Positions 12,765 through 15,252 of a DNA stretch of 21,819 nt are shown here, in pieces. Position 1 is the first letter of the stretch; every line of letters begins with the position of its first letter. The stretch is from Candidatus Hermodarchaeota archaeon (GTDB lineage Archaea > Asgardarchaeota > Thorarchaeia > Thorarchaeales > Thorarchaeaceae). Position numbers and translations under genes: made by a program. Location of the stretch: assembly GCA_048885865.1 (NCBI GenBank), contig JBHLLF010000043.1, positions 1 to 21,819 on the forward strand, written 5' to 3'. The notes under the pieces were generated by a model, which did no database searches, had not been told where the DNA came from, and was given only the letters and a program-made list of their open reading frames with translations.

Positions 12765-13238
12765 TCACTCTTGGGGCAGTTGTGAAGGAGTCGCAATTGA
12801 TTGGGCTACAACAATTTCGAAATCTAGATGAACAGGGCATTTCATTGAGTTAGCTACAAGGCAATATGTATGAGCTCTTTGAGCGGCTTTCTCCATCCTT
12901 TTACGATCTCGCTCTGTTGGGACAATAATCTTCGCGAACATGGTTATCTGGTCGAATTCCCATCCAGACTCACCCTTGGCCAGAGTTGCTTCACTCTTGA
13001 CTGAGAAGTCAGAGAACTCAGCATGGAATCGTTTTGCGACGCCGGAGAGACTAACACCGTAGCATGATACGGCGGAGGCTAGGAAGAGATCCTCAGGTGA
13101 AATGATTTCCTTTGGCGATTCAGGCCAGAAGTCAGGCGGCGTAGCTACCTCGAAAGCCGGTTTGCCTTCAATCTCGATAGTGACAATCTTCTCGCGAACC
13201 CAATTGCTGTCAAGCTCATATCGATGTTCTTCTGTCAT
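12765..13238 (-). CDS. OsmC/Ohr family protein
   Basis: SPEDLFLASAVSC and HTYCLVANSMK carry the two conserved Cys; ATPPDF motif. Confidence 0.9.
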   Translation of the reverse strand: MTEEHRYELDSNWVREKIVTIEIEGKPAFEVATPPDFWPESPKEIISPEDLFLASAVSCYGVSLSGVAKRFHAEFSDFSVKSEATLAKGESGWEFDQITMFAKIIVPTERDRKRMEKAAQRAHTYCLVANSMKCPVHLDFEIVVAQSIATPSQLPQE

Positions 13239-13358
13239 TGAGTGAACCTCGATGTGGTCGGAAAGAGACTCACTTTATAGGATTGCGATTTGACCGTTAT
13301 TGTATACATCATTTTCAGCCTCTAATGGGCGCCAGCTCACAATTTCTGAGAGTAGGGC

Positions 13359-13364
13359 TTATTA
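13359..13364 (+). promoter_or_regulatory. TATA-like box for the putative sRNA
   Basis: TTATTA ends 22 nt before the first paired base of the RNA helix. The same TTATTAG occurs upstream of the PadR gene (16499-16505). Confidence 0.5.
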
Positions 13365-13385
13365 GGATGTAGTGCAGTACACAAC

Positions 13386-13510
13386 ATGTGTGGTGAGCAG
13401 GCGGCTAACAGGGCCTATATTCTGTAACATGCCCTCATAACTCCCCCCCTCCTACCAGTGGCCTTCTCTTCGGAAAAGGCCTAAGCCTTGTTGGCTCTGG
13501 TCATCACACA
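13386..13510 (+). ncRNA. Putative structured small RNA of unknown family (about 125 nt)
   Basis: 13387-13414 pairs with 13485-13510 (10+3+12 bp, one G.G mismatch, a 2-nt bulge, four G.U pairs). Internal hairpin GGCCUUCUC-UUCG-GAAAAGGCC at 13460-13481. C-rich linker. No credible ORF. Confidence 0.7.
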
Positions 13511-13534
13511 ACCTCTACTTGTTCCAACAAGCAG

Positions 13535-14434
13535 TCAGTCGCTGTCTGCTTTCCTCTTTAGCTGCCGGAGCGCTTCTCTGATATCAGCATCGCTGACCTC
13601 TTTTTCTTCAAGGGTGAATCTCTCTGTTCCTAGAGCACTGGCTGATGCGGGTGCTTTCGTTACTGCCCGCTTCCTCAAACCACGGCCCCTCATCTTTGTA
13701 GCTAGCTCAGCAACCCTCTCATCAGTAAGCTCTTCCTCTGACGGAAAGTCCTGTATAGCAGAAATACCCATCTCTCTCATTATGGCTTGTTGAATCGCAA
13801 TCTTGTCAATCTCTTCGATAGCAACACCAGTTATGATCTGTACAAGGTTTTCCGCCTCGTCTAGGGGAAAGAACTTTCCCTCTGATGCCGCAGCAATCTT
13901 CTTCCAAACCATCACAGCATTGTTGTATCTGGAAATCTCAGGAAAACAGCCCACAGTATGCACTATGATACCTTCATAGTAAGCGTTCATCGCCTCTTCT
14001 TCCCAGTGAACTCCACTTGGAGGACCATCCGGCCATCTATCACCAGGCTCAACCCCATGCGGAGGAGCATCACCGACCAAGACTATGACTTTCGCGGCCT
14101 CTCCATTCCATTCAAGATTGATTGCATCCCTAAGCCCATCGTCAACTGCTTCGGGACCATCGCCTCCACCGTGAGCCGACATGCTCCTGACGTTGCGTTC
14201 AATTGCTGCAGTATCGTCAGTAAGGTGAAACTTCTTTGTGACGAATGTTCTCTCCTCTGGCGGATGGTCTCGATAAGGAACCAAGCCCAGTCTCAAACTG
14301 TGACATAACTCCTCCTTCTTTATCGTTCGAATTATCTCAAGGATCTTCCTCTTTGCCACATCTATGTATGGCCCCATAGAGCCCGTATTGTCCACGACGA
14401 AGACCAAGTCTAATTGCCCTAATTTCTCTGACAT
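13535..14434 (-). CDS. von Willebrand factor A (vWA) domain protein, vwkA-like subtype
   Basis: MIDAS DNTGS, YRDHPP, GGGDGPEAV and GDAPPHG motifs, with a charged helical C-terminus. Start is 14434, 14440 or 14443. Confidence 0.9.
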   Translation of the reverse strand: MSEKLGQLDLVFVVDNTGSMGPYIDVAKRKILEIIRTIKKEELCHSLRLGLVPYRDHPPEERTFVTKKFHLTDDTAAIERNVRSMSAHGGGDGPEAVDDGLRDAINLEWNGEAAKVIVLVGDAPPHGVEPGDRWPDGPPSGVHWEEEAMNAYYEGIIVHTVGCFPEISRYNNAVMVWKKIAAASEGKFFPLDEAENLVQIITGVAIEEIDKIAIQQAIMREMGISAIQDFPSEEELTDERVAELATKMRGRGLRKRAVTKAPASASALGTERFTLEEKEVSDADIREALRQLKRKADSD

Positions 14435-14565
14435 ACCCATCACACCATAACGTAATGCGGATTGATAGATATGTCCCTATAAGTTACAAGGTTTTCAGGT
14501 TTGTCCTACTACTTATCAGAGGGTTATGCAACTTCGCTTTTGAAGGAGTCAGGAGAGGCATTACC

Positions 14566-15252
14566 ATGGATATCATTCAAGCGAAGAAGTATCAGGATCT
14601 AATCATTGTTCACGTTCTGTTCATGGTCTTATGCGTTGTAGTTTTGGTTATCCCAGGGGTGGTCATCGGAGGGAAGCTGTTTGTATTAGTCGCAGCCTAC
14701 AATGTGTTTATTCCTGCTGTAGGCTTTCTGAGAAATCACAGAGATTGGCTGCTGCCATGGGGGTATGCCTTTGTCCTGAGTCTTTTCCAGGTCTTCCCGG
14801 ACTGGTTCCTAGCAACGCAACTTGAAACCATTATCTTCCCAGATGATGGGTTCTTCATGATTGGGCCTGTGTCAGGATACATGGCGGGTTTGTGGGCAAT
14901 TCCACTCTTCGTCATTCTCTATATAGGCCTCGAGGTGAAGAAAGAAAAATCACACAGGTCAGCATATCTTGTTGTAGCAGCCCTCACGTTGCTGATATTC
15001 GGTTTAGCTGAGGAAACTATGTGGATGCTTCCCTCATGGTCTGCCCAGAATGTTGCTATGATGGGGCACATTGCAGTCTACATCATTATTCCCGAGATTC
15101 TACTCGGACTCTCCACGCTAATATCCTATGAACTCGTCCAGGCCCGACCGATCTGGATATGGATAATTGGCGCATTCACAGTTATGATTCTGTACATGGG
15201 AAATATCTCATTCTTTTACCTTCTAATAGAACGCATTTTGCCAGGAGCCTAG
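14566..15252 (+). CDS. Integral membrane protein (DUF6989-like)
   Basis: About 7 TM segments; FPDWFL...FPDDG...YMAGLWAIP signature. ATG 14566 follows AGGAGAGG. Confidence 0.7.
   Translation: MDIIQAKKYQDLIIVHVLFMVLCVVVLVIPGVVIGGKLFVLVAAYNVFIPAVGFLRNHRDWLLPWGYAFVLSLFQVFPDWFLATQLETIIFPDDGFFMIGPVSGYMAGLWAIPLFVILYIGLEVKKEKSHRSAYLVVAALTLLIFGLAEETMWMLPSWSAQNVAMMGHIAVYIIIPEILLGLSTLISYELVQARPIWIWIIGAFTVMILYMGNISFFYLLIERILPGA

Follow-up and report, generated by a model that had tools for sequence, protein, structure and literature searches.

A predicted multi-copy small RNA family of Thorarchaeota with an unpaired C-rich core strand

Introduction

Among the described systems closest to the RNA reported here are RsaE/RoxS and the LhrC siblings of the Firmicutes, in which several unpaired CCCU/UCCC-type motifs are held in a loop and a single-stranded linker. 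RoxS is redox-regulated. Within the archaea, sRNA41 and sRNA154 of Methanosarcina mazei are intergenic RNAs with their own promoters, whose C-rich loops are proposed to mask ribosome-binding sites and whose targets are reportedly supported by experiment. The Y RNAs and vault RNAs, of about 100-125 nt, offer another layout, with ends paired in a long stem around a pyrimidine-rich interior. Asgard archaea are the closest prokaryotic relatives of eukaryotes, and to our knowledge almost nothing is known about their regulatory or structural RNAs.

We analysed a Thorarchaeota stretch of 21,819 nucleotides (the window). Analysis of its sequence indicates, with a probability that we put above 0.9, that positions ~13388-13516 of the + strand are a real stand-alone gene for a predicted non-coding RNA of ~125 nt.

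Results

The RNA gene, its fold and its promoter

The elements of the predicted gene are as follows.

13358..13366, + strand: TATA-like promoter box CTTATTAGG, with TTATTA at 13359-13364 and its centre ~26 nt before the helix begins to pair
13386..13390, + strand: predicted transcription start, placed by the TATA-to-start spacing and coinciding with the first paired base, 13387
13387..13414, + strand: 5' strand of the closing helix P1, from the fold and the pairing in the family alignment
13415..13459, + strand: unpaired, nearly invariant pyrimidine/C-rich core strand of ~45 nt, open in both the MFE and the centroid structure
13485..13510, + strand: 3' strand of P1, from the fold and the pairing in the family alignment
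13511..13516, + strand: 3' tail ACCUCU, the predicted RNA end or termination zone lying likely here or shortly after

Sequence inspection and folding show that 13387-13414 pairs with 13485-13510 in a helix of 25 bp, four of them G.U/U.G, in which a G/G mismatch separates the first 10 bp from the next 3 bp and a 2-nt GC bulge separates these from the last 12 bp. The + strand folds with an MFE of -47.7 kcal/mol (z = -3.7), and none of 200 dinucleotide shuffles was as stable. The minus strand folds at -55.8 kcal/mol (z = -4.5) and is more stable than the + strand, so that folding energy is no guide to the strand. We assigned the RNA to the + strand because about 15% of the stem cells in the family alignment (138 of 886, among 43 distinct sequences) are G.U or U.G, which the opposite strand would turn into A.C mismatches, because most copies have their promoter box at a fixed distance on the + side, and because the element is also present at loci that lack the minus-strand vWA gene found beside it in the window. 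Directly 3' of P1, nearly all family copies carry ACCU[UC] or AACUU, which is likely part of the 3' end or termination zone.

The spacing from TATA box to start is about 26 nt in archaea. In 42 of 77 distinct family copies a box of the TTATTA/TTAATA type begins 28-31 nt before model position 1, and copies with an extra 5' hairpin have it at -52 to -55 instead. Similar boxes precede the tRNA genes of the own genome, again at the same distance.

These results bear out most of the preliminary description of the locus. The 25-bp terminal helix with four G.U pairs that it had claimed is present, as is its pyrimidine-rich interior, given as about 42 nt and measured here as ~45 nt, and the TTATTA box at archaeal spacing keeps its position through much of the family. 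Its view that the element is a + strand RNA, and not a DNA palindrome, agrees with the wobble cells and with compensatory stem changes across the family.

Copies, distribution and covariation

With Rfam 15, nothing in the window reached the gathering scores, and 13200-13600 had no match even at E <= 10; this is the comparison by cmscan that the preliminary description had put forward. ARAGORN identified no tRNA or tmRNA, no H/ACA, C/D, BHB or K-turn motif was seen on inspection of the RNA, and the papers that we could search hold no description of the RNA family.

The own 3.58-Mb assembly has two other related sites, on contigs C34 and C39, whose similarity to the window copy resides in the unpaired core and not in the stems. 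We refer to the copies as type A (window), type B (C34) and type C (C39); exact-pattern searches indicate that the genome has these three copies and no more. Their closing stems differ in sequence and keep the pairing. Each paralogue occupies its own conserved syntenic site and, since each holds conserved neighbours, represents an old, positionally stable gene. In type C (L003:1420-1476, + strand) an additional G-rich hairpin stands at the 5' end, and the TATA box is moved ~25 nt upstream. Its 3' flank CACCUCCUAA equals the last ten bases around the own 16S end, an identity that is not kept in other genomes.

A covariance model, R1, was built from 17 copies and scores the window copy at 88.8 bits. 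In the same taxonomic family, it found 1-8 copies in every one of the 41 genomes sampled. A phylum-wide sample placed the RNA in 23 of 23 genomes of this family; the one genome of the sister family had a single weak, clearly homologous match (L097), and the 116 genomes of other Asgard families had none. A scan of ~185,000 species genomes for the exact core returned named matches only in Candidatus Thorarchaeota, Promethearchaeota and otherwise archaeal MAGs. The distribution indicates that this multi-copy RNA family, absent from Rfam, is very probably found only in Thorarchaeota and universal in one Asgard order. We provisionally name it the Thorarchaeota C-rich-loop small RNA family, defined by models R1 and R2. 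Tandem copies were also detected (L113, G043:C26:68137-68746, and L093, G064:C289), either ~330 nt apart or adjacent with one of them truncated, and local duplication is suggested as a source of the 1-8 copies per genome.

In an alignment of 43 distinct sequences (A2), standard pairs make up 91.8% of the stem cells, and both sides have changed in 18 of 21 pairs. When the partner was slid by 1-3 columns, only 31-47% of the cells paired, and none of 500 shuffles reached the observed values. In alignment A4, all 21 P1 pairs have double changes. The search for homologues and covariation that had been proposed therefore returned structurally conserved copies in every one of the 41 family genomes, and 18 of the 21 stem pairs have compensatory changes. 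Together with the lack of an Rfam match and the promoter box at fixed distance, the covarying homologues sustain the earlier proposal of an undescribed Asgard non-coding RNA, predicted to be transcribed independently.

The core strand, the inner hairpin and the insertions

Within and beside the core strand of the window copy we distinguish three features.

13427..13437, + strand: core motif 1, ACAUGCCCUCA, exact in all three own-genome paralogues
13439..13457, + strand: core motif 2, AACUCCCCCCCUCCUACCA, which includes the anti-SD hexamer CCUCCU
~13460..13482, + strand: inserted hairpin with a UUCG cap (cUUCGg), lineage-specific, present only in genomes G000, G010, G002 and G015

The three own-genome paralogues have in common a nearly invariant core that runs from ACAUGCCCUCA to CUCCCCCCCUCCUACCA, and the exact-pattern search of this genome found both ACAUGCCCUCA and CUCCCCCC(C)UCCUACCA in types A, B and C. 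The 14-mer CCCCCCUCCUACCA is likewise exact in the three copies and occurs nowhere else in the genome. The family signature, GCCCUCA followed by CUCCCCCC(C)UCCUA, matches the window exactly at 13427-13457, and GCCCUCA is retained even in the sister-family copy. Over the 77 distinct copies, ~30 core positions are conserved at 80-95% or more. The core strand is G-poor and shows no self-folding in the MFE or the centroid structure; it thus exposes the C-rich motifs GCCCUCA and CUCCCCCCCUCCUA, with CCUCCU inside the latter.

In the types other than A, model R2 describes an inner hairpin, P2, that puts motif 1, ACAUGCCCUCA, in its loop. Four of its six pairs have double changes in these types, with arms such as UUUCGU/ACGAAA, UUGUGA/UCACAA or a U-run with an A-run. 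In type A copies, that of the window among them, the 6-nt 3' half of P2 is missing. This leaves their entire core as one open strand and marks a subtype, not an exclusion from the family.

Stable GC-rich hairpins have been inserted at three tolerated sites around both motifs and never inside them. The cUUCGg hairpin of the window is one such case. It varies slightly in its stem among L017, L018 and the window copy with pairing kept, and is absent from the same-genus copies L019-L024 and from every other genus. The hairpin described earlier is therefore present, at 13460-13481, and is not a feature of the RNA as a whole, being a recent insertion in the four closest genomes.

Neighbouring genes

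Three protein genes surround the RNA in the window.

12765..13238, minus strand: OsmC-family peroxiredoxin gene (Pfam OsmC, 6e-15; NCBIfam peroxiredoxin subfamilies)
13535..14443, minus strand: vWA-domain gene (Pfam VWA_4/VWA), convergent with the RNA and not part of the RNA unit
14455-15252, + strand: DUF6989 gene, in a gene order shared with other genera

The type A paralogue is always divergent to an OsmC-type peroxiredoxin gene, an arrangement found in 24 distinct loci of many genera with 147-229 nt between the ATG and the core. This fixed pairing gives a first physiological lead, oxidative stress. In several genera the DUF6989 gene follows the RNA directly, on the same strand and ~200-260 nt downstream, and the order divergent OsmC, type A RNA, DUF6989 recurs across genera (L025, L027, L028, L055). 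The vWA gene that separates the RNA from DUF6989 in the window appears to have been inserted there later. It adjoins the RNA in genus g1 and otherwise only at a few loci (L047, L022, L034, L074), and in the window the element begins 25 nt past its stop codon. The association with vWA that had been proposed for the locus is consequently not general, since this gene is adjacent in a minority of loci and OsmC is the conserved neighbour.

The other paralogues have partners of their own. Type B lies beside a divergent gene (L002:2-1267, minus strand) for a protein of ~380-420 aa with no Pfam or NCBIfam match, a pairing that three genera or more retain (L029-L032, L069, L071, L066), and type C is flanked by genes for a radical-SAM protein and PhzF. 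No gene for an RNA-binding protein is found among the conserved neighbours, which are OsmC, DUF6989, PhzF, radical-SAM and the uncharacterised protein.

Likeness to the 16S rRNA tail and search for targets

The own 16S rRNA ends in GGAUCACCUCCUAAGC and has CCUCCUA in common with core motif 2 of the RNA. Before 3190 crude start sites, SD-like GGAGG/AGGAG/GAGGT words peak at -16 to -11, with UAGGAGG as a common form; the genome uses SD sequences. The GGAGG peak 12-15 nt before starts is often extended to UAGGAGGU and fits a 16S tail ending in CACCUCCUA. Because the genome uses SD sequences and the core holds CCUCCU, the RNA could pair with SD regions. The consensus SD pairs over 9 nt with the 16S tail, versus 6-7 nt with the RNA.

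Duplex energies of the core against the 3190 start regions were no better than those of composition-matched shuffled cores, and 7-10-mer matches in start regions were in no excess over a reversed-sequence control. Genomic sites complementary over at least 12 nt are only the antisense strands of the three RNA genes themselves. The best single candidate, a gene of the DinB/MST family with UAGGAGGGGG at its SD (a 10-nt match), was rejected when the match proved to be lost even in the orthologues of the nearest genomes. The osmC leader was also discarded: no complementarity to it is conserved, and in some genera the gene seems to have no leader at all. A telomerase-like template was set aside as well, there being no G-rich complementary repeats anywhere in the own genome.

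As for rRNA, no complementarity above 9 nt, wobble pairs included, was found to 16S or 23S (genome G050). The bases that follow CCUCCU are variable between genera in rRNA and fixed (ACCA) in the RNA family. Since the rRNA trailers differ between genera in this way, the RNA copies neither the 16S end nor its processing site, and the identity is limited to CCUCCU(A).

Two oddities were observed in the 16S genes of relatives. In G050 (L077:1400-1545, minus strand) an insertion of ~94 nt replaces the GGAA loop of helix 45, the site of the universal dimethyl-adenosines, and forms three hairpins, each with a CAUUUCG loop; it could be an rRNA intron or expansion. The own 16S end (C21, around 48527) has a normal short helix-45 loop. 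In G024 (C2, C9) the last 18 bases of 16S occur in three copies, including a pair on one contig with 1.9 kb between them.

Discussion

The most likely mode of action, to which we nevertheless grant somewhat less than an even chance, is generic SD pairing in trans, in which the RNA would mimic the anti-SD. The predicted RNA would act through its exposed C-rich strand, which may pair with the G-rich SD regions of mRNAs; once paired, it would compete with the 16S rRNA tail and translation initiation would be lowered, as in RsaE/RoxS and the Methanosarcina sRNA41/154. The fixed position divergent to the OsmC gene suggests that the type A copy may be co-regulated with peroxide or redox defence, and the remaining paralogues would provide that strand under the control of different promoters. 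Several results count against such pairing: the ~30 invariant core positions exceed what a seed of 6-7 nt needs, the target scans show no specific regulon and the consensus SD favours the 16S tail.

The first two of these points lend themselves to a protein-binding RNA, a scaffold, sponge or part of an RNP, whose helix would present two CCCUC-type motifs to a binder of C-rich strands. Candidate binders are a KH-type homologue of Pno1/Dim2, which we take to bind the 16S tail, or a Thorarchaeota-specific protein, and the RNA would titrate or escort it by the logic of CsrB/RsmZ, 6S or Y RNA. This possibility, which we rank second and regard as less likely than not, would account for the invariance of the core, between paralogues as between genera, over far more than the length of a short seed, and for two similar motifs at a set spacing. 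It is also in line with the presence of the RNA in every family genome behind a strong generic promoter, as predicted, and with the failure to detect either an mRNA regulon or rRNA complementarity above 9 nt. It is weakened by the domain census, in which the only protein with two KH_1 domains, encoded at C9:76084-76527 of the own genome, is of the universal Pno1/Dim2 type and no RRM protein appears, by the lack of an RNA-binding protein gene as a conserved neighbour, and by the fact that base-pairing sRNAs such as RsaE also hold long invariant cores. If the RNA does bind a protein, it would be part of a new lineage-specific RNP.

A broader proposal, unlikely in our judgement, is that of a housekeeping Asgard RNA that mimics the single-stranded 16S tail and either globally tunes SD-dependent initiation or sequesters a factor that reads the tail, the OsmC-linked copy being switched on with peroxide defence. 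Mimicry of the 16S tail, if true, would be a mode of translation control not described in archaea. Since the invariant strand carries the anti-SD, the family offers a testable handle on the control of translation initiation in Thorarchaeota.

We consider it improbable that the element acts in cis, as the 3' UTR or terminator of vWA, as an antisense regulator of vWA by read-through or as the 5' leader of DUF6989. Its start 25 nt after the vWA stop, the stable fold of the minus strand and the DUF6989 gene ~200-260 nt downstream on the same strand in several genera would agree with such a role, but the wobble pairs and the covariation fit the + strand only and the element is conserved where vWA is absent. 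In addition, the opposite-strand vWA gene parts DUF6989 from the RNA in the window, paralogues lie beside unrelated genes, and the distance of the box is fixed to the stem and not to any ORF.

Still less probable is a Y-RNA-like or vault-RNA-like part of a particle with Ro60 or the major vault protein. The long stem formed by the ends around a pyrimidine-rich loop, the size of about 100-125 nt and the vWA gene adjoining the RNA in the window (Ro60 has a vWA domain) recall such RNAs. However, the Rfam search at E <= 10 covered the Y RNA and bacterial Y-like models and matched none of them, and TROVE (PF05731), proposed earlier as a gene that might co-occur with the RNA, was found neither in the own genome nor in any of the 41 family genomes, of which 20 have a completeness of 90% or more; the control genomes did match. 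The positions and sequences of the bulges and mismatches of P1 vary between copies, and with stem irregularities that are not conserved there is no Ro-type bulged-C helix. The vWA gene, moreover, is adjacent in a minority of loci only. A search for the MVP repeat (PF01505) gave no match in the own genome, and none in the control genomes either. The resemblance noted in the preliminary description thus holds for the layout, a terminal stem with a pyrimidine-rich interior, and goes no further, neither to Ro60 nor to an Rfam match or a bulged helix; its reluctance to call the element a Y RNA was well placed.

A coding or dual-function RNA is hardly credible. Types A and B contain the frame AUG CCC UCA UAA (Met-Pro-Ser-stop) and type C a frame of 20 codons, and the AUG within ACAUGCCCUCA is invariant inside the family. 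Against this, the frames differ between paralogues in sequence and length (3 versus about 20 codons), the AUG has no preceding SD, the sister-family copy L097 has AUUG for CAUG, and the conservation follows the pattern of a structured RNA, in which stems covary and loops are fixed. A mobile element (MITE) or DNA-level palindrome, which the long inverted repeat might bring to mind and which had been named among the findings that would speak against an RNA gene, has a practically negligible chance, given only three diverged copies, each syntenic and none dispersed and identical, with arms that hold G.U pairs and covary as RNA.

Comparison with known systems

Compared with the Y and vault RNAs, the Thorarchaeota RNA is alike in its long terminal stem, its pyrimidine-rich interior and its size, and unlike them it has no Ro60/TROVE gene in its genomes (0 of 41), no conserved bulged helix and no Rfam match. 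With the 3' tail of 16S rRNA it shares CCUCCU(A), and the identity ends at 6-7 nt. It resembles sRNA41 and sRNA154 of Methanosarcina mazei as an archaeal, intergenic RNA with its own predicted promoter and C-rich unpaired segments, whereas their sequence and fold are unrelated and they belong to another phylum.

The likeness to RsaE/RoxS and the LhrC siblings extends to several unpaired CCCU/UCCC-type motifs, to a core highly conserved throughout a lineage and to the existence of sibling copies. For RoxS it includes a link to redox or oxidative stress, which in the Thorarchaeota RNA is the OsmC neighbour. There is no homology to RsaE/RoxS in sequence or model, and the Thorarchaeota RNA is archaeal, with no target found in the scans. 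Finally, RsaE/RoxS have hairpins of the terminator type, whereas the Thorarchaeota RNA encloses its motifs in a closing helix of 21-25 bp.
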